Assembly: GCA_963720505.1 (NCBI GenBank)
Contig: CAVRFT010000002.1
Coordinates: 16,121 to 80,120, forward strand
From: an uncultured Chloroflexia bacterium
GTDB lineage: Bacteria; Chloroflexota; Limnocylindria; QHBO01
DNA: 64,000 bases
Direction of reading: 5' to 3'
The position numbers and the translations under genes are program-made. Below, piece after piece: positions 23 to 39,859 of this stretch. Every line of letters begins with the position of its first letter. Position 1 is the stretch's first letter. Under the pieces are notes generated by a model. It had not been told where the DNA came from. It did no database searches and worked only from the letters and a program-made list of their open reading frames with translations.

Positions 23-3000
23 TCAGGCTCCTGCATGGACCACCTTCTTCGCCTCGCGCAGCAGCGCCGATGCCTCCTTCGCCTGCTTCGACAGCCCCGC
101 CGCCTTGAATGCTCGGCCGCCAGCGTCAGCCGCTCGGTCGCGCCGGCCGCGTCACCGCGATCGCCGCAGCACGGCGCCCCACGCCAGGTTGGTGTGCGCC
201 ACCTCCAGCACGCAGCCGCCTCCCTCGAACAGCTCCAGGGCCGCGGCCAGGTGCTCGTCGGCGGCCGCAGCATCCGGCGAATCCTGTCGAGCCAGGGCCA
301 CGCCCCATGTCCGTTGCGCCACCCCCTCGCCGAAGACGCCGCCGATGGCGCGCGCCTTCTCGATGGCCGCCTGTGCGCGGGCCACGGCCTCGTCCAGCCG
401 TCCCGCGGTGAGGGCCGCCTCCGCGCTGCCCGCCGCGATCCAGTCGGCCGCCACCAATCGGCCTCCGATCTTCTCCGCCTCCGCGCTGGACTCGGCGACG
501 AATTGCTCGGCCTCCTCGAACTGTCCCAGCAGTCCGAGCGCCCATCCCTGGTAGCCAAGGCCCACTGAGATCATCAGGGAGTTACCGGCCAGGCGGCCGG
601 TCTCGACGGCCAGGCGCGACCCTTCGCGGAACGCCTCCAGGTCACGGGTCAGGTACGCCTGGAAACCCAGGACGATGTAGCAACCGGCCAGAATGGTGGG
701 GCTCTTCGTCTGCTTCGCCCGTTCCACCGCCGCGTGCTCCTCCGCCAGGCCGTCTGCTGGCTTGCCGGACGCGGTCACCGCCACGCCGTGATACGCGATC
801 GAGAAGGCCAGATCCAGCCACTCGCCCGCCTGCTCGAGCGGACCGATGGCGCCCGCCAGGATGGGGATCGCCCGGTCGAAGTGGCCCTGCACCACCAGCG
901 CCCGCCCCATGACGGCCATGGGAATCGCCACCAGTCCGGGGTCGGCCAGCTCCTGGCCGACCGACAGCACCTGCTGGAAGTAGCCGATGGCCTCACGGGG
1001 CTCGTCGCGGTAGTAGTGGATGCGGCCGATCCAGTACTGGACGCGGGCCAGCCGCACGCGGTCGGGTCCCGGTCCGCCATCCGCTGCGGGCAGCGCCCGG
1101 GCCACGGCCTCCGCCTCGGCCAGCTTGGCCAGGTTGCGCCCCGGATCCTCCGCTCCCCATGACACGACCATCTGCTGTACGACCAGGTCCACCAGCTGAC
1201 GGCGGATGTCATCCGTGGGCGGCAGGTTGGTGAGCGCCTGCTCGGCGGTCGTGTAGTGCAAATAGGCCTCGGGGTAGGCATGCAGCCGTACGGCCGCGTC
1301 GCCGGCGGCCACGGTAATAGGCATGGGCCTTGTCCCAGATCTCGCCGTGCAGGAAGTGGCCGCCCAGGATCGCCTGGAACTCGCCGATGCGGTCGCCCAC
1401 CAGCTCCTCCAGCGCCAGGCCCACCCGCGCGTGCAGGTCACGGCGTTGCGCGGCGGACAGGGTCTCGTAGGCGACCTCCTGGGTCAGCGCGTGCTTGAAG
1501 ATGTATTCCAGCTCCGGATCGCGGCGCAGCTCCCGGATGAGCTCCTCGCGCTCCAGGTGCTGGAGCTGCGACTCGAGCTTCGCCACGTTATCGGCCAGGC
1601 GCTCGAGGACGCGTTCCTGGAAGATGCGCCCGATCACCGCCGCTTCCTGCGCCGTCCGTCGCGTGTCGGGCGCCAGCCGGTCAAGCCGGGCCATCAGCAC
1701 GCCCTGCAGCGTGTCCGGCACGGTGACGCCCTCCATCTTCGGGGTGACGACCCAGGCGTCGCCCTCGTGCGCGCGCTCCAGGCCACCGCGCTCGATCAGC
1801 GTCCGGATGACCTCCTCCACGAAGAACGGGTTGCCCTCGGCCCTGCCAACGATCAGGTCGCGGACCGACGACGGCAGCGCCTCGGCGCCGGCCAGCAGCT
1901 CGCCGACCAGGCTGACCGCCGACTCGCGCGCCAGCGGCAGCAGGTCGAGATGCGTCAGGCGGTCGGCGTACTGCTCGGTCACGATTGGCAGCAGTGGCAC
2001 GTCGCCCTCGCCGCGGCGGAAGACGCCCACGATCGCCAGCGGCACCTCGCGGACGAGCGGCAGCAGGTGCCGGATCAGCTCGATCGAGCTGTCATCGGCC
2101 CAGTGCAGGTCCTCCATGGCCAGGATCGTCGGCCGCTGCTTGGCGAGCCGCCGGATGAGGTCCTCGACCAGCGCGAATAGCCGCTCCTTGGTGGCCTGCG
2201 GCGTCAGGGCGGCCAGGTGCTTCTCCTCATCCTCCTGCAGGCGCATGCCCAGCATGCTGGCCACCAGCGCATCGGCCTCCAGGCCTCCCGGCAGGACCCG
2301 ATGCAGCCCCTGGCGCAGGCGCGAGCGCGCGCGCGCCTCCGAGTCTTCATCGGTGATGCCGGCGTAGCGCCGGCTCAGGTCGGCGAACGGCCCATACGGC
2401 ACGCCGGTGCTGCCGGAGTACGAGCGCCCCTCCAGCCAGCGAATGTCCCTGCCCAAGCGACCGATGCCACTCAGCCATCAGCCGCGACTTCCCAATGCCG
2501 GCCTCGCCGGTGACGATCACGACCTGGCCGCCGCCGGCCCTCAGCTGCTCCGTCACGTGCTGGAGCTGCTCGAACTCCAGCGAGCGGCCGACCATCGCCG
2601 CCGCCAGGCCCTGGACGCCGCGGCCCTGGCCCGGGAAGAGCCGCGCGCGCTGCAGCTCGAACACCGTCACCGGGTCGCGCTTGCCCTGCACCTTGATCGG
2701 CTTCAAGCGGCGGAAGTCGAATGCCTCGCGCGCCAGCCGCTGGGTGCTCTGACTGACCAGGATCTGGCCGGGCTTGGCGGCGACCTGCAGCCGCGAGGCG
2801 GTGTTGACGGTGTCTCCGGTGACCGAGTACGCGCCGCCGCGGTCGGCCGCGATCTGGCCGGCCACCACCGGCCCGCTGTTTACGCCGATGTGGAGCTCCA
2901 GCGTCTGACCCAGCCGATCGACCCAACGGTCGTTGATGCCCTCCATCCGCTCCCGCATCGCCAGCGCGGTGCGCAGCGCGCGCTCCGGGTCGTCCTCGTG

Positions 3001-3471
3001 GGTCAGCGGCGCGCCGAACAGCGCCACGACCGCGTCGCCAACGAACTTCTCCACGAAGCCTTCATGGGCGTAGACGACCGACGCGATCTGGTCGAAGAGG
3101 TCGTCCTGGAACTCGCGAATCAGCTCCGGGTCGAACCGTTCCCCCAGCCCGGTGAAGCCATGCAGGTCCGCGATGAGGACCGTGATGTTCCGACGCTCGA
3201 CCTGGGATCGGGGGGCGGCGGCGGTGCGACGCGCCTTGTCGGCCAGTTCGGCGGGCACGCGTGCCTGCAGAGCGGAGAGGGCCTCCTCTTCGGTGGTGGC
3301 CGCGGGCCGGTCACCGGTTGCGGACGCGTTCTGCGCCTGAAGCAGGTCGAGCTGTGCCTGCAGGACCGATACGGCGGCGTCCACCGCCTCATCGCCCACC
3401 ACCGGCCGCAGCTGATCCTGTGCCGCGATCGCCGCTTTCAGCTGTTCGATACGGTCGGCAACCAGCGTCAC
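23..3471 (-). CDS. Class III adenylate/guanylate cyclase + STAND AAA ATPase + TPR protein (SWACOS-type); split by about 3 indels
   Basis: ORFs 2347-3471, 1209-2456 and 152-1441 join into one protein. Motifs: cyclase LIADLHGFT/EKFVGDAV/GDTVNTASRL, Walker A GEAGIGKS, Walker B MEDLHWAD, GNPFFVEE, then TPR-like helices. A shifted frame continues to TGA at 23-25. Confidence 0.9.
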
Positions 3472-3527
3472 GTCGTGCTCCCTCGCAGGCGCGTCAGCCT
3501 ATCGGTCCGCCTGACCCGAGGCAAGCC

Positions 3528-5946
3528 TCAGGCGCCTGAATCGGTTGCATCGTTGCGGACGAGGCCGCGCTCCAACGCGATGGTCACGATCCCGATGCGG
3601 CTGTCGGCCGCCAGCTTGTCCTTGATGTTCGCCACGTGGACGCTTGCCGTCTTTCGGCTGATGAAGAGCTCCTCGCCGATCTCGGCGTTCGAGCGGCCGG
3701 CCACCACCAGCGCCAGCACCTCGCGCTCGCGTGGGGTCAGGTCGAAGGGTGATCTCGGCGCGGCGTCAGGTGCGGCAGTTTCGTGTAGCTCCGCTGTCTG
3801 TATCGCCAGCTCGGCCGCATCCAGTGCCTGCTCGAGGGTTGGAACGCCACCGGGGGTTGGCGCCTTCTCCGGCAGCGGCGGATGTCCACCGAATCGCTGG
3901 CGCACCCAATCCAGGGGGTATGCGAGTGGCGGATCCATGCCATGTAGGACTGCGAGGTGCTCGGCGGTCAGCCATGTCGCACGCGCCTCATCCGCAACTC
4001 CGACCCTGTCGAGCCATGCGGCAACGCTGGCCAGGCTTCCAATCAGGTCCGGCATGGCTCCCGCCTCGCGCGTGATTCGAACCCCCTCGAGCAGCGAGGA
4101 TCGCGAACCCTCGAAGTCGCCGTTCTCCAGCTGGCCAACACTGAGGGGCAACAGCAGGCTGCCAAGGAACGCCCGCTCACCCCACTCACGCGTCAAGCGG
4201 ACGGACTCCTTCCAATATTCCAGCGCGGCGTGACTATTCCCGGAGTCCCACTCGACACCTCCCAGGTGATTCAGGCTGAGGGCGACCCGCTGCAGGTCGC
4301 CAGCCCGCTTGGAGGCGTCGATCGCAGCAAGCAACAAACGGCGTCGATCCGCGAGCCGGCTGCTGTCGACGTGGCTGAGGATCACGGAACGCGCGTACGT
4401 GAGCCGGCCCTCCAGGTCCGCGTAGCCCTTGCTCTCGGGCGATCGCCAACCCTCGTTCGACAGGAGCTGTAGCCAGATCGTCATCACCCAGGTCGGACAA
4501 GGTCGATCCGAGGTGGTAAAGGGTGTCCGCAATGCTGCGCCGGTCGCCAAGCTCTTCAAAGAGTTGGAGCGCCTGCTCCAGTAGATCCCGGCCTCCTGCG
4601 ACATCGCCGCCCACGGCGTCCAGCCAACCGGCCGTCATCAACACCGCGGCGCGCGACGAGGGCGCGGCATCGGCGCTGCCTGTGAGAGCCTCCATGAGCC
4701 AGGTGCGACCCTCGCTGATGCTCCCGTAGTAGCGCCAGTAGGTGCCCATCGGGGCGGCGAGCCGGCACAGTCGCTCTGAATCGCCGCTGTCGGAGAGCCG
4801 GGCGCGAGCGGCACGAATGTTGTCGAGGTCCTGGTTCAACCGTGCCAGCCAACGCGCGTGATCCGGTCCCTGGAGTCGTGACCCGGCGGACTCCGCCAGC
4901 CGAATGCAGAAGTCCGCATGCCGATCCCGAGTCTGGACAACATCGGCCTCCGAAAGCTCGGCCAGCCCAAACTCGCGGATGGTCTCGAGCATCGAGAACC
5001 GCGGCTCACCATCGCTGCCGACGGATGCAATCACCAGGTTGTGATCGACAAGGAGACCAACGGCGTCCAGCAGCAATGCGTCGTCGCTGTGCGAAACAGC
5101 CTGGATGCCCTCGAGGTCGAAGCCGCCGACAAAGACGGCGCAACGGGAGAACAACAAGCGCTCGCCCGCGGGCAGCAGGTCGTAGCTCCACGCGATGGTG
5201 GCGCGGAGGGTGCGTTGGCGGGCCGGCGCATCAGCCGCCCCTCCAGTCAGCAGGGCAAGTCGTGCCCCCAAGCGCGCCAGGATAGCGTCGGGCGAAAGGA
5301 CCTTCAGGCGGGACGCAGCGAGCTCGACCGCAAGCGGCAGTCCGTCGAGCTCACGGCAGATTTCGGCCACAGCGGTGGCGTTTTCGTCCGTCAGCTGGAA
5401 GTCCGGTCGCACCGAGCGCGCCCTCCCAAGGAAGAGCCGCACGGACTCGATATCCTTCAGATTCTCGGCCGATCGGGCGGTTCCACTGGGAGGCGTTGCG
5501 AGTGGCGGGACCGGATACTCCTGCTCCCCCACTAGGTGCAACGGCACGCGGCTCGTGACGACGACACGTAAGGACGGCGTCGCATCGAGCAGCATCCCCA
5601 CCGTCGGGGCAGCGGCGGCAATCTGCTCAAAGTTATCGAGCAACAAGACTGTTTCACGGCGCCCCAATCGCTCGCTGACGACGGTCATTGGATCGATGGC
5701 GCTCGATTCCCGAACTCCCAGTGCTGCGCCGATGGCGGGCAACAGTTGTTTTGGATCTAGAACCGAAGCCAGCTCGACAATGTGGCGCGGTCGCCGGTCT
5801 GAAGGGGTCCCGATCGCCTCCACCGCCAACCGAGTCTTACCGATACCACCGGGGCCGGTCAGCGTGAGCAGCCTGGTCCCCTCCAACAGGCGTCGGACCT
5901 CCGCTATCTCGCGCTCGCGGCCGACGAACGCGCTTCGCCACTCCAC
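3528..5946 (-). CDS. STAND/NB-ARC-like ATPase + TPR + LuxR HTH transcriptional regulator; one frameshift near 4400
   Basis: GPGGIGKT P-loop, LLLDNFE, LDGLPLAVELAA; C-terminal LTPREREVLALVVAGRSNAEIGEELFISRKTASVHVANIKDKL. Confidence 0.9.
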
Positions 5947-5988
5947 GGGCGAAGTCTAAGCGCGGCGATCCGGAACTAAGACGCGAGA

Positions 5989-6045
5989 CTCAGAAATGAG
6001 TCAGGCCCTAAGGCGCGTCCCGATGTGTCCAGCGCGGCTTAGGCC
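5989..6045 (+). promoter_or_regulatory. Putative LuxR-type operator/promoter motif CTCAGAAATGAG...CCTAAGG-N3-GTCCCGATGTG...CTTAGG
   Basis: Inverted CCTAAG (6007) / CTTAGG (6038) half-sites. The same core recurs on the minus strand near 35080-35100 and 35950-35970. Confidence 0.6.
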
Positions 6046-6097
6046 GAGGGTGTGCAGCCAAGGGCAGCAGCCCGAACACAAAGCGGAGGACACGGAC

Positions 6098-6553
6098 ATG
6101 GTTGCATCTCAAGGGACGCTTCAGCGGCCAAGCGCACGACAGGCGAGCGGCTGGGCCGCTCTCGTGGTCGCGGGGTTCATGGTTGGTCTGATCGTCGCCT
6201 ACGCGATTACGCTGGGACCGCTCGCCCAGAAGTCGCCGGCCACCGGAGGGCCTGCGGCACCGAACGACGCCGGCCAAAGCGCATTTGCCGCCTACCAGCA
6301 CACGGTTTCCAACCTGGCTGCCGCCGTCCAGCGCCATGACTGGCAGTCCATTGCGCGCTTCCAGTCACAGCTCGAAGGCCAGATCGGTGCGGAAACGATT
6401 GGGGCGGTCTATGCGGAGCGATCGCGTCTGCTCGGCAACCTGGCCGCCGCCGAACAGCGACACGACGTGCGCATGGCTCTTGCGTTCCGCCAGCAGATAG
6501 ACGACTTGTGCCCGGCAGCGCAGGTCAGCAGCGCGCCGGCGTTCTGCCGATAA
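6098..6553 (+). CDS. Hypothetical single-pass membrane protein
   Basis: GGAGGA SD at 6085, hydrophobic segment, two internal repeats (NLAAAVQRHD / NLAAAEQRHD). Confidence 0.65.
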   Translation: MVASQGTLQRPSARQASGWAALVVAGFMVGLIVAYAITLGPLAQKSPATGGPAAPNDAGQSAFAAYQHTVSNLAAAVQRHDWQSIARFQSQLEGQIGAETIGAVYAERSRLLGNLAAAEQRHDVRMALAFRQQIDDLCPAAQVSSAPAFCR

Positions 6554-29802: not shown

Positions 29803-30228
29803 TGTCTCTCCTTACTCGTTCTGACCGGTAAGCGCGGGTTGGCGTTCTGAATAACCGCAGTCTGCGACGAGCAAAGAAGGATGGCAAGTAAGATTGTTAG
29901 ACCCTGTTGACTGTAGGCACCGTTAGTCTTTCCTACTCGAGGAGCGAACAAGCTGCAGAGCCGCGCATGCTGCGGGCTGCCCGGCCATCCTGGATCGCCG
30001 TAGACTTCGTCGGCCTAGACGGATGCGAACGGCCGGCGCTACTTGGCGGTCCGCCATTTGACGCGCATCTGGCCTTGCTCCTGAGCCGCTTGCTTGCTTG
30101 CATCGGAGTATAGGATTCCGATAACGGGAGGCTGCGATGCGCGAGCGAACCCCATGGTCGCCCTCACTGCCGATCGCTTGCGCTGAGCCACTGGCGAAAC
30201 CGGCCCGTTGCTGGGGAGGACTCGATCC

Positions 30229-31480: not shown

Positions 31481-33970
31481 ATGGACACGATCATCGATCT
31501 GCTCGACCGAGCCGTGGCCGAGCACGGTTCGCAGGCCGGCGCTGATCATCAAGCCTGGCTTCAGGACGCGGATCTGGACGTACGCCGATATCGGCGACCT
31601 GGTCCCGCGCGTGGCCCAGGTGCTGCGGGGAGCCGGCGTGCAGCCGGGCGATCGGGTCCTGATCTGGGCCGTCAACCGCCCGGAGTGGGCCATCGCCTTC
31701 CTTGGCGCGCTGTGGGCGGAAGCCGTGCCCGTGCCGGTGGACGTCCGCTCCACCGACGAGCTGGCCACCAAGATCGCGGCCCAGACCCAGGCCAAGCTGG
31801 TGCTCGCCTCCATCCCCACCATCAAGGCCGCCAGCCGGCTGGAGCTGCCGGCGCTGACCGTCGAGTCACTGGTCGACGTGGCGCGCGACGCGCAGCCGCT
31901 CCCCCGCCCGACTCCCGATCCGGACGCCCTGGCCGAGATCGTCTTCACCTCGGGCACCACCGGGGATCCGAAGGGCGTCATGCTCAGCCACCGCAACATC
32001 ACCTCGAACGTCACCTCGCTGGGCAGCGTGGTGCCGCTGGGGCCGGAGACCCGGCTGCTCTCGATCCTGCCGCTGTCGCACATGTACGGGCTGAACCCGG
32101 GCTTCCTGGCGCCGATGCTGACCGCGGCGCATCGGTCGTGTATCCGACCAGCCTCCAGGCGCCCGTGCTGGCACGCACCTTCCGCGAGCGCAAGGTCACG
32201 ATGCTGCTGGCGGTGCCGCAGGTCGTGAAGCAGCTGAACAACGCCGTGGAGCGCCGGGTCGACGCCGACGGCCGGCGGGCGATCTTCGAGCGGCTGCACG
32301 GCATCGCGCGCCATCTGCCCATGCCGTTGCGACGGCTGCTGTTCCGACCGGTGCTGTCGCGGCTCGGTGGCAGCCTCGAGTACCTGGCCGTCGGCGCCGC
32401 GGCCATGAACCCGGTGATCGCCCGCCGCTGGGAGGAGATGGGCGTGGTCTCGCTGCAGGGCTACGGCGCCACCGAGACGTCGCCGGTGGTCGCCTTCACC
32501 CGCGTGGAGCGCAACCGCGTCGGCACGGTGGGCGAGGTCATCCCCGGCGTGGAGGTGCGGATCAGCCCGGAGGGCGAGATCCAGGTCCGCGGCCCGAACG
32601 TGTTCCAGGGCTACTGGCAGCGGCCCGATGCCACCGCGGCGGTGATGCAGGACGGCTGGTACCGCACCGGTGACGACGGCATGCTGGACGCGCGACGGCT
32701 TCCTGACGCTCCAGGGCCGCAGTCAAGGACATGCTGGTCATGCCGGACGGCACCAAGGTGCACCCGGCGGACGTGGAGCAGGCCCTGACGCGCGACGCGC
32801 GCGTGCGCGACGCCGCGGTGGTCGGCCTGGAGCGGCCGGGCAGCGAGGTCCAGGTCCACGCGGTGCTGATCCTCCACGACCCCACCGAAGCCGATGACGT
32901 GGTCCGCCAGGCCAACACCCAGCTGGGCGGCCACCAGCAGATTCGCGGCTTCACCGTCTGGCCGGAGGACGAGTTCCCCCGCACGCCCACCCTCAAGGTC
33001 AAGAAGCCGGAGATCCTGAAGTGGATCCTGGCAGCCAAGACCGATGAAGCCCCACCGTCCGGGACCGATGCTCCCGCCGCAGCCGGCAGCCCCATCGAGC
33101 GCCTGGTCGCCCAGCTCGACGGCGTCCACGCCGATGCCATCCGGCCCGACGCCCGACTCTCCACCGACCTCGGCATCGATTCGCTCGGCCGCGTCGAGCT
33201 GCTGGGCATGGTCGAGGAGTCGCTGGGCGTCTACATCGACGACGGCGAGCTCGACCCGGAGGAGACGCTGGAGCAGCTGCAGGCCAGGGTCGATGCCGCC
33301 CCTCCCAACACCGCCGCGCCGGAGGGCATCTTCGGCTGGCCGCTGAATCCGGTGGTCGGCGCGCTCCGCATCGGCCTCCAGACCTTGATCATCCTGCCGC
33401 TGGTGAGCCTGTTCTACCGCCGCCCGGTGCGAGGCCTGGAGCACCTGGACGGGCTGCAGGGGCCGGTCATGTTCGCCGCCAACCACCACCTGCACAACGA
33501 CAACGCGCTGATCCTGATGGCCATCCCGGTCGGCTGGCGCTGGAAGCTGTCGGTGGCCGCCGCCGCGGACGACATCTTCGGCTCCTGGTGGCGCGGCACG
33601 CTGTCCGCCATCCTGGGCAACGCCTTCCCGCATGGCACGCGAGGGCGCCGTCCGCCGCAGCCTCGACCTGCTGGGCGCGCGCCTGGACCGCGGCTTCAGC
33701 GTGCTGATCTACCCGGAGGGCAAGCTCACCGTCGACGGCCCGCTGCAGGAGTTCAAGTCCGGCACCGGCCTGGTCGCCATCCACGGCGCCATCCCGGTCG
33801 TGCCGATCCGACTGAAGGCCCGCACGCACAGCCGGATCGACGAGGACACGGACGGCACGGCCTGGCGCGGCGAGGTGGAGGTGGTGTTCGGGAAGCCGCT
33901 GCGCTTCGGGATCGACGCCGACCCGACCCAGGCCACGGCCGAGATCCGCGCCGCCATCGAGGCGCTCTAG
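31481..33970 (+). CDS. AMP-binding acyl ligase + acyl carrier + PlsC acyltransferase fusion (Aas-like); 4 frameshifts
   Basis: FTSGTTGDPKG, GYGATET, WYRTGD, LGIDSL (phosphopantetheine Ser), NHHLHND, YPEG. Confidence 0.9.
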
Positions 33971-33989
33971 GCCGGCTGGCATGAACAAG

Positions 33990-34025
33990 GAAGAGGCCGC
34001 CGGAGCAGATCCGGCGGCCTCCTTC
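33990..34025. terminator. Hairpin between convergent genes (probable bidirectional terminator)
   Basis: GAGGCCGCCGGA-GCAGA-TCCGGCGGCCTC perfect 12-bp stem. Confidence 0.75.
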
Positions 34026-34043: not shown

Positions 34044-35001
34044 TCAGTCGCCGAGCTCGGCCCTCGTGCTGACGTAGATGTCGGCGGTCACGCCGCGCCC
34101 GAAGTACAGGCGCTTTCCGTCTCCGGAGAGCGACGGTCGCGACTCCGGCTCCGCCGTGTTCACCGCCGTCACCGGGACGGGAGTCGACCACAATCCGGTT
34201 GAGCCGTCGAAGGTCGCGGTGAAGATGTCCATGTTCCCGTTGCGACTCGACGCGAACACGATCTCGCTCCCATCGGCGCTCACGTTGGGCATCTGATCCA
34301 CGGCCGCCGAGTTGAGCTCCGTCACGGCCTGGGGCGTTCCGAACCTGCCGTCACTGCCCAGGATGCTTCGGTAGATGTCGTGGTTCCCGGACGTTCCCGT
34401 GCTCGAGAAGTACAGGTACGTCACTCCGCCGATCGTCCTCAGCGACGGTCCGAACTCGCCGCCCGTGAAGTTCGGGCCGCTTCCGTCCGCGACACAGCCG
34501 AGGTTCTGCGGAGCGTCCCACGTCCCGTCGTTGCGCTGCCGTGTGATGTAGATGTCGCCGACGGGCGGCGTCATCCCGGGAGTCGCACCGCAGGCGGTGC
34601 GATCCGAGACGAAGAGCAGCCAGCCACCGCCGAGCGGCGTCGGGCAGAACTCGTTGTCAGCGCTGTTGATGGCCGAGCCGAGGTTCTGCATCGGTCCAAA
34701 GGGGTCGCTCTTCTTCGAGCGGTCGGCCACCCAGACGTCGTTCTTGCCATACCCGCCGGGCCGCGTGGAGGCGATGTACAGCTGCTTGCCGTTGGGCGAC
34801 TCGATGGGGCAGCCTTCGTGAGCGGCCGTGTTCACCTCGGCCACCGCCGTGGGCGCGCCCCACGGGCCGTAGTCCGATGCTTGGGCGGCGAGCCGGCAGG
34901 ACGCCGGCTACCACGAGGAGGATGGCGCCGACGATGGACGTCATGGCGCGCTGTGCTCGGGAGCGTGGCCAGAGGCCCGGGGCCGTGAAGTACGGAGTCA
35001 T
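34044..35001 (-). CDS. Secreted PD40/TolB-like beta-propeller protein; frameshift near 34890
   Basis: Five repeats of type xNT/S..E..P...DG..LYFxSxR; signal peptide; N-terminus MTPYFTAPG. Confidence 0.85.
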
Positions 35002-35128
35002 CTTCCTTCTCCATCTGCTAACTGGCGGGACGTTGCCCGCTTCTCGATGGAGAAGGTGGTCCTAAGGGTGGGCCGGCCACATCGGGACGGTCCTTAGGCG
35101 ACGGTCGTCGGTTGCCTCATTTTCTCAG
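34975..35128 (-). repeat. About 150-bp direct repeat, copy 1 (promoter + SD + first 9 codons)
   Basis: Aligns by eye over its full length with 35847-35998, with scattered substitutions. Confidence 0.95.
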
Positions 35129-35195
35129 ACCGGACCTCGCAAAGAATCCACTCGAGCGGGTCGTCCTCGTTCTCGTCCCGCTCGCTTCCGCGAAA

Positions 35196-35227
35196 GCAGA
35201 AGGCCGGGCGTCCTGCCCGGCCTCTGC
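35196..35227 (-). terminator. Rho-independent terminator of the 35247-35873 gene
   Basis: Minus strand GCAGAGGCCGGGC-AGGAC-GCCCGGCCTTCTGC followed by TTT. Confidence 0.7.
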
Positions 35228-35246
35228 TCGTTCCCGCGTCAGCCGT

Positions 35247-35873
35247 CTAGCAAACGATGTCGCCGGTGGTGTTGCCGTCGCTTGACTGGCGCCACACACC
35301 GCAAGCTCCAGCTTCGAACGTCCCCGCGAACTTGAGGAATTGGAGGGAGTCGAAGCTGGAGAAGTAGTTCCTCGCGTTGAAGGCAGCCCCGAGGCATGTG
35401 CCGTCCTGCTGGCACTGCAGGTCGAAGTCACCGACGAAGCCGCTCGTGGCGAGGTTGGGCGCGAAGGTTCCCTGGATCACGATGACGAGCTCGCCGTACC
35501 ACCGGCCGGTCACTCCGGCGCTGACCGTGCCGGTCCCCGCCGGGCTCACGCCTGCGAAGCTGGTGAACGTGCCGATGTCCTGGCGCTTGAAGCAGTAGGT
35601 ATTCGTCCCGATCTGCCAGATCTGGATCGACTCGCGAGCCGCGTCGAGCGCCCAGACATGCCCGTCATTTCCGACATCGGCGCTGTTGCGGTACGTGCCG
35701 TACGCGTTTACCACCAGGGGGCCGCCTCCGGGACACTGCGCCACAGTGGCTGCCGCGGCGGTCTGGGGCATCGTCGCCAGCACCGCAAACACCACGCCAA
35801 CCACCACGGACTTCATTGCGCGAAGTCCTCGCGGTATCCGCGAGGTGCCCGGGGCCGTGAAGTACGGAGTCAT
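35247..35873 (-). CDS. Secreted Cys-containing hypothetical protein
   Basis: Intact ORF with signal peptide and several Cys residues; N-terminus MTPYFTAPG shared with the 35001 gene. Confidence 0.8.
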   Translation of the reverse strand: MTPYFTAPGTSRIPRGLRAMKSVVVGVVFAVLATMPQTAAAATVAQCPGGGPLVVNAYGTYRNSADVGNDGHVWALDAARESIQIWQIGTNTYCFKRQDIGTFTSFAGVSPAGTGTVSAGVTGRWYGELVIVIQGTFAPNLATSGFVGDFDLQCQQDGTCLGAAFNARNYFSSFDSLQFLKFAGTFEAGACGVWRQSSDGNTTGDIVC

Positions 35874-35998
35874 CTTGCTTCTCCATCTGCTATTGGCGGG
35901 AGTTGCCCGCTTCTCGATGGAGAAGGTGGCCCTAGAGGTGGGCCGGCCGCATCGTCACAGTCCTTAGGCGACGGACGTCGGTTGCCTCATTTTCTGAG
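35847..35998 (-). repeat. About 150-bp direct repeat, copy 2
   Basis: Matches 34975-35128. Confidence 0.95.
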
Positions 35999-36004
35999 GC
36001 AGCG

Positions 36005-36364
36005 TCAGCAGGTGTACAGGGGCGTACCGTCGATCAGCTCGGCGACGACGTCCGCGGCGGAGATGATCCGTGCGCCGTCGATCAGATCGGCCTCGGTGAT
36101 GCCACGGGGCTTCGTGCACGCGCCGCAGGCCCACACCTGGCCGCCGTTCTCGAGCAGCGAGGCAAGCACCTCGCTCAGCGGTTGCATGCCCTCGTGGTGG
36201 ATGTCGTCGGCGTAGCCCTTCGTGGCCAGCCAGACTCCCTCGATGGTGAGAAGCACGATCGCTTCCTGGTCGGCCGATGCGGCGACATTCGCCACGATGA
36301 AGGGCAGCGTCGCTCGCTCATGGTCGTCCTTACCGTGTGTCGCTTGCGCCATGAATCTCGCCAT
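36005..36364 (-). CDS. DsrE/DsrF-like sulfur-relay family protein
   Basis: THGKDDHERATLPF..LLTIEGVWLA..VWACGAC. Confidence 0.85.
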   Translation of the reverse strand: MARFMAQATHGKDDHERATLPFIVANVAASADQEAIVLLTIEGVWLATKGYADDIHHEGMQPLSEVLASLLENGGQVWACGACTKPRGITEADLIDGARIISAADVVAELIDGTPLYTC

Positions 36365-36381
36365 CGATTCTGTCCTCTCGG

Positions 36382-36634
36382 CTACTTGCGACGTAGGAAA
36401 TAACGAGTCCGCCCCGGTGCCGTCCTCGATGATGGCCACCAGGGGATTTCCGGTCAGCCTCGACCAGGAAGCCAGCCCACTTCGCGCGGTTGGGTCGTCG
36501 GAGACGACCTCGAGCACCTGTCCACTCGGCAGTTGGCGCATCCGGGCCGCGATCATCGGAGTCAACGTCGCGCAGTCCTGCCCGACGAGGTCCATCCGAA
36601 CATCGGCGGCCGGAGCACTCGATGCATCCATCAT
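36382..36634 (-). CDS. TusA/SirA-like sulfurtransferase; appears fused to DsrE only through an indel
   Basis: MDLVGQDC..P..L.SGQVLEVVSDDP..LASWSRLTGN; the shifted frame ends RTRYFLRRK-TAG at 36382. Confidence 0.8.
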
Positions 36635-36790
36635 TCGTTTCTCCGATTCCTCTGCGATGCTGGCGCGAGGGTATGCCGCCGTACCGAGCGCCACGGCAAT
36701 GGGCTGCTCCTTAGTTGCCGGGAGCGGAGTTCCTTAGTCCATCGTGCGTTGGCAGGCAGGATCGCTTGCGCGAGTCCGGATAATCCGCGG

Positions 36791-39700
36791 ATGAACCCGC
36801 GGATCTCGAGCCCCGTGTTCGTCGGGCGCGGCCAGGAGCTTGTGCGCCTGCGCGCGGCTCTCGAAGGCGCCATGTCCGGAACGGTCGGCACCACGCTCAT
36901 CGGCGGCGAAGCCGGCGTCGGCAAGAGCCGCCTGCTCGCGGAGTTCCGCGCCGGCGCCACCTCCGAGGGCCTGCGTGTCCTGGAAGGCGGGTGCGTCGAC
37001 CTGGGAGACGGCGCGCGCCCGTATGACCCCTTCGTGGCCGCCCTCCGCCCGTGGCTGCGATCACTGCCCGCGGAGGACTTCGACCGCATCGTCGGGCCGG
37101 CCCGATCCACCGTCCTCCAGCTGATTCCCGACCTGGGATCTGATGGCGAGGCCGAGGCCGAGGTTCGGGCCACGGCCCCTGCGTCCGCAACGCAGTCAAC
37201 GCTTTACCTCCAGGTGCTTGGCTTGATCGAGCGCATTGCCGCCGATGCCGTCACTGTCATTGCGTTGGAGGACCTGCATTGGTCGGATCGGTCCACCCGC
37301 GACCTGCTGCGCTTCCTGGTACGAAACCTGACCCAGGGTCGCGTGATGCTGATCGGGACGTACCGCACCGATGAGCTGAACGAACGTCATCCGTTCCTGA
37401 CCCTGCTCGCCGAGCTGGGACGGAGCGGGCAGGTGGATCGGTTCGAGCTCGCGCCGTTCACACGGAACGAAGTCCATGACCAGATGGCGGGCATCCTCGG
37501 CCGTCCTCCCGATCGCTCCCTCGTCGCGCAGCTCCACGACCGCGGCGGTGGGAACGCCTTCTTCACGGAGGAGCTCCTCGCCGTCGCGGAGCGGAGCGAG
37601 CAACGCATCGGCCTCACACTTCGCGAGACGCTGCTGGCCAGGGTCGGTGGACTCTCCCCTGCGTCCCGGGATCTCTTGCGCGTGGTCGCCGTGGCCGGTC
37701 AATCCGCACGGCACGACGTCCTGGCAGCGGTGGCGAAGATGCAGCAGGCGGAGCTCGGCGCGACCCTGCGGGAGGCAATCGATCGCCAGCTGCTGCTGGC
37801 CGGCGACGACGAGGTCATGCAGTTCCGCCACGGCCTCCTGCAGGAGGCGGTGTACAACGAGCTTCTGCCCGGTGAGCGGTTGGCGCTGCATGCCGCGGTC
37901 GCGGCAGCCATCGAGGTCCTCAACCCTGATCAGGAGACCGATGCGGCGGTCGCCTCAGAGCTGGCTCACCACTGGTACGAGGCGCGCGATGTGCGCCAGG
38001 CGCTGCCGGCCCTGCTGCGCGCCGGGCGCGCGGCGGAGCGGATGTTCGCCTTCGGGAACGCGTTCGCCCACTTCCACCTGGCGTTGAGCCTGTGGCCGGC
38101 GGGGATGGATTCCGTTGACGGCATGATCGCGCCAGGACCTGAGGATGCGGACGGCCCAGGCGGCTGCCATGACCGGCGCCTACGATCGGGCGATCGCGCT
38201 GGCTATTGGGGCGCTGGACGACGATTCGGCCCTCGAGCCGGACGCCGTGCGCACCGGCGCATTGCTCGAGCGTCTCGCGGTCTATCACCTCGGAGCCGCC
38301 AACCCGGACGCCGTGGAGCCGGTCGCCCGTCGTGCCCTGGAGCTTCTCCCGACCGATCCGCCTTCGGTGGCGCGAGCCCACGTGCTGGGCATCCTGGCGC
38401 ACGGACTGGGGATGCAGGCTCATTTCGACGAGTCCGATCGCTTCGCCCAGGAAGCGCTCGCAACGGCGCGGCAGGTGGGTTCGGCCGAGGCCGAGATCCG
38501 CGCGCTGGGCTGCATCGGCCGCAATGCCGCCGCGGTTGGAGATGCCGCCTCGGGGGTCCGAACCTTGCGCCAGGCGTTGACCCTCGCTCGCTCGGTCGGC
38601 GACTTCTCGGGCGCCGCCGAGATCGCCATCGAGCTGGCTCTCGCACTCCACTGGGCGGGAAAGCTGGAGGAGGCATGCCAGGTGGCCGATGAGGCGATCG
38701 CCGAGAGTGCCCGTTGGGGGACCGAGGGGTTCGGGATCGCGCTGCGGGCGGTCAGGGGTCAATCGGCCTTACTGCTGGGACGATGGCTCGAGGCGGAACA
38801 TTGGATCGACGCCGCAATTGCGGGAGAGTCCCTGGGCTTGCCCGGCGTCATGGCGAGCGGGGCTCGGGGCCTCCTCGATCTCGGTCGGGGCAGCCTGGAC
38901 TCCGCTGAGGGTCATTTCGAGACCGTGCTGCTGATGTGCCAGAACTTCAGTGCGACCGTCTATGGGTGGAACGAGCTGTACGCGAGCATCGCCCTGCTGT
39001 TGATCGCGCGCGGGCAGCCAACCGAGGCGATCGCGTCCGTGCGCGAGAGCCTGGCGCGCTCTGCGCAGCCCGAGCGCGATGTCCACATGCGCGTCTGCCA
39101 CCGCCTGGCGATCCGTGCCGCGGCGGACATCGCCGACGTCGCTCGCCCGCTGGGCGATTCGGCGAAATTGGAGGAGGCGCTGGCCATCGGCCGCGAATTC
39201 GACGCCCTGATCGATCACCACGCGCAGCTCGTGCGCGCATTGCCGGATGGCGGCGACCCGCACCTCGCGCTGGACGTGGCACTCGGCAAGGCCGAGCTGA
39301 GCCGGCTCACCGGTCGCTCGAGCGCCGCCGCGTGGGCCACCGCCGCGGCGGCTGCGGACGAGCTGCAGCATCCCCACGAGGCCGCCTACAGCCGATTCCG
39401 CCAGGCGGAGGCGCTCCTGCTCTCGCGCGGGCCGAGGACCACTGCCCGCGCCGCAGCGCTGGAGGCGCACCGGATAGCGCGTGATCTGGGGGCCACTCCC
39501 CTCCAGGGGGAGGTCGAGCGGCTTGCAGCGCGATCGCGGCTGGACCTTGCGAGCCCGCCCGTCGATTCCGACGGGGATTCCGGCGCTGACGCAGTTCCGG
39601 CGCTGAGCATTCCGCCGCTCAGGCGGTCGGCCGCGCGATCCCGTTCCGTCTGACGCAGCGCGAGCAGGACGTCCTGGAGCGCCTCACCCTGGGCCACACC

Positions 39701-39859
39701 AACCGGGAGATCGCAACTGACCTGTTCATCAGCGAGAAGACGGCCAGCGTGCACGTGTCGAACATCAAGTCGAAGCTGGGAGCGAACGGCCGCGCGGAGA
39801 TCGCCGCGATCGCTGTGCGTCTCCGGCTCGTCCCGGAGCCCATTGAGGAGAGCGAGTAA
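36791..39859 (+). CDS. STAND AAA ATPase + TPR + LuxR HTH regulator (MalT/LAL-like); 2 frameshifts
   Basis: GEAGVGKS, LEDLHWSD, GGNAFFTEE, LTQREQDVL..GHTNREIATDLFISEKTASVHVSNIKSKL. Confidence 0.92.

Follow-up and report, generated by a model that had tools for sequence, protein, structure and literature searches.

A repeated module with a putative control region, a leader and a start in front of unrelated secreted proteins in soil Limnocylindria

We analysed a window of 64,000 nucleotides (nt) from an uncultured Chloroflexia bacterium (class Limnocylindria; contig CAVRFT010000002.1, positions 16,121 to 80,120 of the forward strand) in which a repeated element of about 150 nt, here called the module, stands before two genes for secreted proteins. 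Read along the minus strand, the locus consists of a gene for a TusA-DsrE fusion protein, module copy B, a gene for a Cys-rich protein of 208 amino acids (aa), a GC-rich hairpin, module copy A, a gene for a PD40 beta-propeller protein, and a hairpin flagged as terminator-like; a large regulator of the STAND-LuxR type is encoded divergently (Table 1).

Table 1. Coordinates of the module copies, their cargos and adjoining features in the window (SD, Shine-Dalgarno sequence; CM, covariance model; HTH, helix-turn-helix)
Feature	Coordinates	Strand	Remarks
Module copy B, heads the Cys-rich protein	35847..35998	minus	CM match 35871-35995, 136 bits
Module B, box I ATGAGG	35990-35985	minus	
Module B, box II CTAAGG	35967-35962	minus	
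Module B, CGATG	35954-35950	minus	
Module B, anti-SD CCTTCTCCATC	35926-35916	minus	
Module B, GC hairpin	35910-35896	minus	
Module B, SD GATGGAGAAG	35887-35878	minus	
Module B, ATG	35873-35871	minus	followed by 9 shared codons
Module copy A, heads the PD40 protein	34975..35128	minus	CM match 34999-35125, 145.6 bits
Module A, box I ATGAGG	35120-35115	minus	
Module A, box II CTAAGG	35097-35092	minus	
Module A, CGATG	35084-35080	minus	
Module A, anti-SD	35056-35046	minus	
Module A, GC hairpin	about 35040-35024	minus	
Module A, SD	35015-35005	minus	
Module A, ATG	35001-34999	minus	followed by 9 shared codons
Cargo 1, secreted Cys-rich all-beta protein, 208 aa (CPGGGPLVVNAYGTY...)	35247..35873	minus	
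Cargo 2, secreted PD40 (TolB-like) beta-propeller	34044..35001	minus	continuous once one extra base near 34891 is disregarded
GC-rich hairpin 3' of the Cys gene	35196..35229	minus	tail only UUU
Hairpin 3' of the PD40 gene	33991..34023	minus	flagged terminator-like
TusA-DsrE fusion gene	36005..36694	minus	start probably ATG 36634
Bipartite site 5' of TusA-DsrE	36709..36737	minus	CTAAGG (36737-36732), N17, CTAAGG (36714-36709), then CCCATTGCC
Divergent MalT-like STAND-LuxR regulator	36791..39853	plus	AAA_16 + TPR_MalT + GerE HTH
Partial copy, 5' region only	5996..6043	plus	ATGAGT, CCTAAGG 12 nt on, CCCGATG, GCTTAGG

The first-pass annotation of this stretch had drawn attention to two near-identical segments, and BLAST indeed aligns copies A and B with 92% identity over 152 nt; a repeat search reports the same match as two blocks, one of 97 nt at 91% and one of 90 nt at 80%, and the copies were also aligned by MAFFT. 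The similarity extends from CT(G/C)AGAAAATGAGG to GGCCCCGGGC, i.e., to codon 9 of both open reading frames (ORFs), so that the shared N-terminus MTPYFTAPG had been read correctly, as had the second Met that follows after 19 residues in both ORFs. The mature proteins are unrelated, again as proposed: the PD40 protein matches PF07676 (E=4e-26), a Pfam search with the Cys-rich protein returned no family, and BLASTP between the two mature parts gave E=0.39, which speaks against a simple tandem duplication of homologous domains. The suggestion that each unit has a terminator of its own holds in so far as a hairpin lies 3' of each gene and that of the PD40 gene is terminator-like. The hairpin behind the Cys gene, with its short tail, could act as a weak terminator or stabilise the mRNA; it is kept in other arrays with compensatory changes.

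Searches with a covariance model built from five module copies, together with one exact-pattern scan of each public collection, extended the pair to a family. The 56 model matches correspond to 43 distinct sequences from 48 sources, namely Limnocylindria metagenome-assembled genomes (MAGs) and soil metagenomes. All named records are Limnocylindria/Chloroflexota MAGs or soil metagenomes, with the exception of one MAG labelled Verrucomicrobiia (locus L018); its contig, DATNBW010000032.1, carries STAND-LuxR, TusA-DsrE and module of the Limnocylindria type, and the label is probably a binning error. Across whole genomes the distribution is patchy, with the module present in 6 of 176 genomes of the family and in 9 of 401 of the class, in two families. 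No description of the element was found in the literature on Limnocylindria. Apart from copies A and B, the genome of the window (G000) contains a third full copy (C7:274030-274157) 5' of a gene for a 125-aa secreted protein, with similarity ending at the ATG, and two partial copies, one within the window (5996-6043) and one at C7:272158. The latter (copy C7b; locus L067, C7:271385-272200, minus strand) lies 2 kb downstream of the third full module and is degenerate, reading ATGAGG-N19-CCTAAGGACCGTGGCGATG; it runs straight into a short extracytoplasmic function (ECF) sigma gene with an in-frame TGA, followed by an anti-sigma gene. As a candidate regulator of the modules, this sigma/anti-sigma pair was rejected, since it was found at no other element locus. 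Several assemblies (L022/L015, L046, L051 and other short contigs) break within or just past a module, as expected if genomes hold several near-identical copies, and array sizes in short-read MAGs are probably underestimated.

Translation from the ATG that ends each element assigned the downstream genes to at least six unrelated classes of signal-peptide proteins, and the earlier idea of a reusable module in front of different extracellular cargos is thus borne out by the copies found in this genome and its relatives. The classes are the PD40 propeller, the Cys-rich protein, a protein of about 214 aa (TYTDPVGD...; class 3), a secreted cupin (PF07883), a 255-aa protein with a TasA/SipW-like signal, and the 125-aa protein. 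Pfam searches covering five of the six classes gave matches for the PD40 and cupin proteins only. The AlphaFold2 model of the Cys-rich protein is all-beta (mean predicted local distance difference test score, pLDDT, 80.8) and has no match better than E=0.18 among PDB folds; to judge from this model, the protein may represent a new fold. Its family has 173 homologues with seven invariant Cys residues; among the 120 of these that were listed, all are unnamed or "hypothetical" and the sole named organism is Limnocylindrales.

The cassettes, i.e., modules with their cargos, are all co-oriented and form arrays of 0-3 straight after TusA-DsrE, whose number, content and order vary among relatives. 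Thus, the arrays read class 3, Cys, PD40 in L030; Cys, class 3, PD40 in L036; class 3, TasA-like in L040; Cys, PD40 in L052; and class 3, PD40 in L053. Two genomes (G012, G137) have PD40 only, and two others (G008, G179) have Cys, the contig ending soon after. No cassette is present in G005, where metK is the next gene after TusA-DsrE.

The junctions between module and cargo are mosaic. Together with the module move the ATG and 2-45 codons, up to a whole signal peptide. Among the 120 listed Cys homologues, the N-termini comprise the native form MRKRPLRVRG... and the fusions MTPYL+RRHPL... and MTAYVSAPGTWRNPRG+IRRHPL..., while two proteins (P0001 and P0018) have an entire PD40-type signal peptide fused to CPGGG; junctions in this family therefore lie anywhere between codon 2 and the signal peptide's end. 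The window's own Cys protein joins the module's MTPYFTAPG to its own signal peptide TSRIPRGLRAMKSVV.... Elsewhere, 37 N-terminal PD40 codons stand in frame ahead of the Cys protein's own Met (L014), 27 PD40-type codons and a stop precede a cupin (L018), the last TusA-DsrE codons are kept upstream of the module (L040:10960 and L032), and the 5' half of a class-3 module is joined to the 3' half of a cupin module (L045). A tree of the elements requires 14 cargo switches, compared with a minimum of 6. Since the fusion junctions differ among homologues, recombination appears to have re-headed cargos repeatedly, and the proposal of tandem arrays built by recombination near the signal sequence agrees well with the variable arrays and scattered junctions.

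Copies A and B of the window are each other's nearest relatives, while the Cys-cargo and PD40-cargo modules of the same genus (G008, G012) are only 77-81% identical to copy B. Hence the Cys cassette seems to have been converted recently by a PD40-type module, and a conversion tract ending at codon 9 would explain the identity of about 92% up to that point. Duplication, gene conversion and homologous recombination between copies are a more likely route than any mechanism dedicated to capture. Within about 45 kb of the locus, the window's genome has no tyrosine recombinase: the PF00589 matches there are at C2:2.6-3.1 kb, 224 kb and 259 kb, and the locus is at C2:50-53 kb. The notion of a cassette that captures cargos is therefore retained as far as re-heading is concerned and is less likely as to the capture itself. 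Likewise, N-terminal codons do travel, as a secretion cassette would have it, but the module usually contributes a short extension ahead of the cargo's own signal peptide rather than the signal peptide as such. Taken as a whole, the earlier interpretation is partly supported.

The 3' part of the module is a leader, about 85 nt long, where the tract CCUYCUCC(AUC) and the Shine-Dalgarno (SD) sequence (GAU)GGAGARGG form a helix around a GC hairpin. In 41 sequences, each folded independently, the mean pair probability of this SD helix is about 0.7, and alignment columns 70-80 can pair with columns 119-129 in 83-85.6% of cells, as against 50-61% for slid partners. At pair 72:127, 20 sequences have CG, 14 have UA and 3 have UG; G-U pairs are seen elsewhere in the helix as well, and two hairpin variants (L038, L058) carry G-C to A-U changes. 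The SD-masking helix, which folding and covariation support, is a feature of the RNA level and would gate translation; with 8-11 GC-rich pairs it looks too stable for a thermometer. Applied to the 41 sequences, RNAalifold missed the SD helix because of misalignment and proposed no fold for the 5' half, and mutual information over all column pairs was dominated by the split of the sequences into two clades and was uninformative. A search of positions 34700-36100 against Rfam 15 (E<=10) produced no match to the elements, and regulation of the CsrA type through GGA sites was rejected because no CsrA was found in 21 genomes, with controls positive. The leader is a candidate for a new family of cis-regulatory RNAs, an undescribed SD-masking leader. 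The sole gathering-level Rfam match in the window is a full-length c-di-GMP-II-GAG riboswitch aptamer (RF03169, 61.9 bits against a gathering threshold of 40) at 30118-30214 on the plus strand, about 4 kb from the cassettes.

The invariant parts of the 5' region are ATGAGG, CTAAGGA and CGATG, separated by 17 and 6 nt, respectively. Between its two TRAGG boxes, the distance of 23 nt from start to start is invariant in all full-length copies including those of family f3. The same phasing recurs 5' of TusA-DsrE in about 25 loci as [C/G/A]TAAGG-N17-[CTAAGG or ATGAGG]AGC..CCCATTGCC, at 54 nt from the STAND-LuxR start codon, and this site is present also in the cassette-less G005 and in the genomes of family f3. 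In the 2.53-Mb genome the bipartite pattern TRAGG-N18-TRAGG occurs 5 times, 4 of them in this system, compared with 1 occurrence of the reversed control. CTAAGG is rare, with 66 sites, and all 3 close pairs of it fall in this system, where about 0.1 would be expected. ATGAGG and CTAAGG interchange at one position among clades, which fits a single recognising factor better than a role as start or stop codon. As the bipartite site occurs also outside the repeat, 5' of TusA-DsrE, we read the 5' half as a putative DNA-level activator or promoter site, common to TusA-DsrE and every cassette. A distance of 23 bp is also the canonical one between the starts of -35 and -10 hexamers. Promoter geometries of the sigma-70, sigma-28, sigma-54 and ECF types were compared by eye and by consensus scan, and none fits. 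For the 5' half no common fold was found, and a universal helix enclosing box II was discarded, since cognate and non-cognate duplexes differ only marginally (-14.7 vs -13.6 kcal/mol).

The genes conserved beside all loci are those of TusA-DsrE and the STAND-LuxR regulator only. In nearly all loci the first module starts 10-14 nt past the TusA-DsrE stop codon, and the divergent regulator, of about 1000 aa, adjoins TusA-DsrE in every locus long enough to show it. The window's regulator matches AAA_16 (E=2e-28) and TPR_MalT; GerE was matched in a second STAND-LuxR paralogue at 3528-4604 (E=2e-17), and at its C-terminus the adjacent regulator can be aligned with the HTH end of L023, an intact orthologue. 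This second paralogue (2347-5946, minus strand) shares its divergent intergenic region with the window's partial copy, so the boxes are again tied to the STAND-LuxR family, though with a spacing of 12 nt. On the plus strand, this intergenic region (5947-6097) holds four boxes of the CTAAG/ATGAG type at about 5956, 5977, 5996 and 6008, and an 11-bp hairpin, CCTAAGGCGCG...CGCGGCTTAGG, before a small membrane or secreted protein starting at 6098. The TusA-DsrE gene has a conserved leader itself, about 100 nt in roughly 25 loci (36634-36737 in the window), in which CCCATTGCC is followed by CATACCCTC and then by GGAGAAAC-N5-ATGATG; this leader looks like that of the cassettes in a shorter version and could be a further regulatory RNA. 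One in-frame TAG was noted in the TusA-DsrE match of L070-L073 (genomes G137, G083, G179 and G012), and none in the window.

Several genes of the window are frameshifted. The ORF with the signal peptide (MTPYF..., 34657-35001) and the PD40 ORF (34044-34844) lie in different frames, and comparison with the intact orthologues L035 and L031 places one extra base near 34891, which the first-pass annotation had overlooked. The STAND-LuxR gene is broken into three frames, near 38126 and at 39605-39614, while its orthologues are single ORFs, and the ORF list suggests that an acyl-CoA ligase/acyltransferase gene (31481-33984, plus strand) changes frame at least twice. Because neighbouring genes are affected too, the PD40 frameshift is likely an assembly indel; an indel-prone (long-read) assembly, rather than a set of pseudogenes, is the likeliest source.

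On balance we find it probable that the repeats represent a self-contained module for expression in soil Limnocylindria, which is activated by a regulator, masked at the SD sequence and spread by recombination. Control at the DNA level would reside in the 5' region, with TRAGG boxes 23 bp apart as they stand 5' of TusA-DsrE, and the adjacent MalT-like STAND-LuxR regulator is the most likely activator of both the TusA-DsrE promoter and every cassette. With the SD sequence paired in the leader helix, translation is proposed to start only once the helix is opened. The ATG with a few codons, up to the full signal peptide, travels along with the module, and homologous recombination between module copies, which the mosaic junctions suggest, would place it before at least six unrelated secreted proteins; the same events would create, shrink and reorder the arrays of 0-3 cassettes downstream of TusA-DsrE. 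A number of observations weigh against this explanation. The consensus scan found no -35/-10 pair of the sigma-70 type in the module. The covariation in the leader is limited, resting largely on one pair that tracks the split into two clades. The link to the regulator is indirect, made by adjacency and a weak similarity of motifs, and two partial copies have spacings of 12 and 26 nt instead of 23. Between the TusA-DsrE stop codon and the first module there is too little space for a terminator; the module may therefore be co-transcribed and act purely at the RNA level. Furthermore, ATG AGG and six more codons end at an in-frame TAA, one partial copy with a spacer 3 nt longer is still in frame, and UAAGGA with an AUG 8 nt on looks like a ribosome-binding site with its start codon.

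These last points are the core of an alternative that we consider rather unlikely, in which the 125-nt element would act wholly as RNA in a polycistronic transcript of TusA-DsrE and cassettes, either as a riboswitch-like or protein-bound leader or as a relay of two mini-ORFs. The first mini-ORF would run from AUG AGG to the UAA, the second would start at the AUG of CGAUG with UAAGGA as its SD sequence, and translation would open the helix between anti-SD and SD. Besides the absence of a terminator after TusA-DsrE, this alternative would account for the ATG and TAA being in frame in all full copies and in copy C7b, for the substitution of ATG by TTG, still a start codon, in L089, and for the change of CGATG to CCATG, with the ATG kept, in L030:2482. 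In clade 1 the second mini-ORF ends 5 nt short of the anti-SD, in clade 2 it reads across it, and many lineages loop box II and CGAUG in a lineage-specific helix. However, as a conserved short ORF this second mini-ORF was rejected: it is not universal, spans anything between 1 and more than 60 codons, and encodes peptides that show no conservation. The 5' half lacks a consistent fold, the energies of its cognate and non-cognate duplexes being close; Rfam gave no match, and no CsrA was found in 21 genomes. Moreover, the first TRAGG box 5' of TusA-DsrE is not followed by a start codon and yet keeps the 23-nt phasing, and start and stop codons leave the interchange of ATGAGG and CTAAGG unexplained.

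The variation in number, content and order of cassettes at one fixed platform, their patchy distribution among genomes and the imperfect palindromes CCTNAGG...CCTNAGG in the module would also suit recombination sites of a mobile cassette system, comparable to integron attC and served by a dedicated recombinase at the TusA-DsrE platform. We regard this as very improbable, given that no tyrosine recombinase is near the locus in the window's genome and that no third gene is conserved beside the loci; nor do the junctions, scattered from codon 2 to about codon 45, define a single crossover point, and modules within one array can differ strongly (L030, L036). Still less credence can be given to the view that the repeat lacks any modular function and is just a recent local duplication or gene-conversion tract confined to this genome, or an artefact of assembly. 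Copies A and B are indeed closest to each other (90-92% identity) and the assembly contains several frameshifts, but copies with the conserved boxes and the compensated helix, in front of six cargos, come from dozens of independent assemblies and from two families.

In its control logic, the module with its putative activator most closely resembles, by analogy, a MalT-type regulon. Regulators of the MalT kind are known to act on many promoters by way of a box that overlaps the -35 region (PMC7567727, PMC4381067), e.g., in Actinoplanes sp. SE50/110 a MalT-like regulator activates 17 promoters with a motif about 34 nt upstream of the transcription start site (PMC7567727). As in the MalT regulon, a large STAND-LuxR ATPase adjoins its presumed targets, and the TRAGG-N18-TRAGG site is present at TusA-DsrE and at every cassette; box I, ATGAGG, equals the 3' six bases of the Escherichia coli MalT box GGGGA(T/G)GAGG. 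In contrast to MalT-type systems, the boxes are not TCATCC-N5-GGATGA but TRAGG, repeated directly at a distance of 23 bp, the targets would be TusA-DsrE and secreted proteins under a regulator whose role is putative, and the shared sequence runs about 100 nt further, through a structured leader into the start of the coding region. The leader itself belongs beside the known SD-sequestering leaders, i.e., the expression platforms of riboswitches, RNA thermometers and translated leader switches; as in these, an upstream pyrimidine tract pairs with the SD sequence, and the pairing is maintained by compensatory change.

The closest evolutionary analogues appear to be the vsp/vpma families of Mycoplasma and the lpl cluster of Staphylococcus aureus. 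In vsp/vpma the 5' untranslated region (UTR) and signal-peptide region are highly conserved while the mature parts are not homologous, and phase variation results from a neighbouring Xer1 recombinase that inverts DNA around a single promoter (PMC2268961). In the module loci, too, genes that otherwise have nothing in common share a conserved 5' UTR and signal-peptide region; unlike vsp/vpma, the cassettes are co-oriented, each has a complete module, no recombinase is nearby, and the host is a free-living soil bacterium. In lpl, homologous recombination between conserved segments reshuffles tandem genes, the recombining unit covering the end of one ORF, the intergenic region and the start of the next ORF (PMC2568036). 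The lpl genes, however, are paralogues of one family that recombine at a central conserved coding region, whereas in the present arrays it is the regulatory module that is homologous, the cargos being unrelated. A variable array of single genes beside a fixed platform, with every cassette bounded by a repeated structured element, is reminiscent also of integrons. Integron cassettes are mostly promoterless single genes in a variable array beside a conserved platform. In the module loci there is no adjacent intI tyrosine recombinase and no attC/attI signature, the junctions are imprecise, and the repeat stands at the 5' end and carries expression signals; site-specific capture of the integron kind is thus unlikely.

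To our knowledge, almost nothing is known of the regulatory biology of Limnocylindria, which are abundant, uncultured soil Chloroflexota. The module offers a testable regulon in which a single MalT-like sensor, a bipartite DNA site and an SD-masking leader go with secreted proteins whose set changes and several of which come from families without annotation, and its variable junctions are a natural series of signal-peptide fusions. It suggests that in a free-living bacterium the evolutionary unit can be a control region with its leader and first codons rather than a gene; such units were earlier described mainly in surface-antigen families of pathogens. We tentatively put forward, as a conjecture that may well fail, that the module serves a cassette system without integrase in two ways, as its unit of regulation and as its substrate for recombination. 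Should this be so, a gene that gains the module of about 150 nt would join the regulon of one STAND-LuxR sensor, and module-bearing genes would be excised, duplicated, reordered and exchanged between strains through homologous recombination at the module. Limnocylindria would then own a shufflable, co-regulated secretome beside a fixed TusA-DsrE platform.

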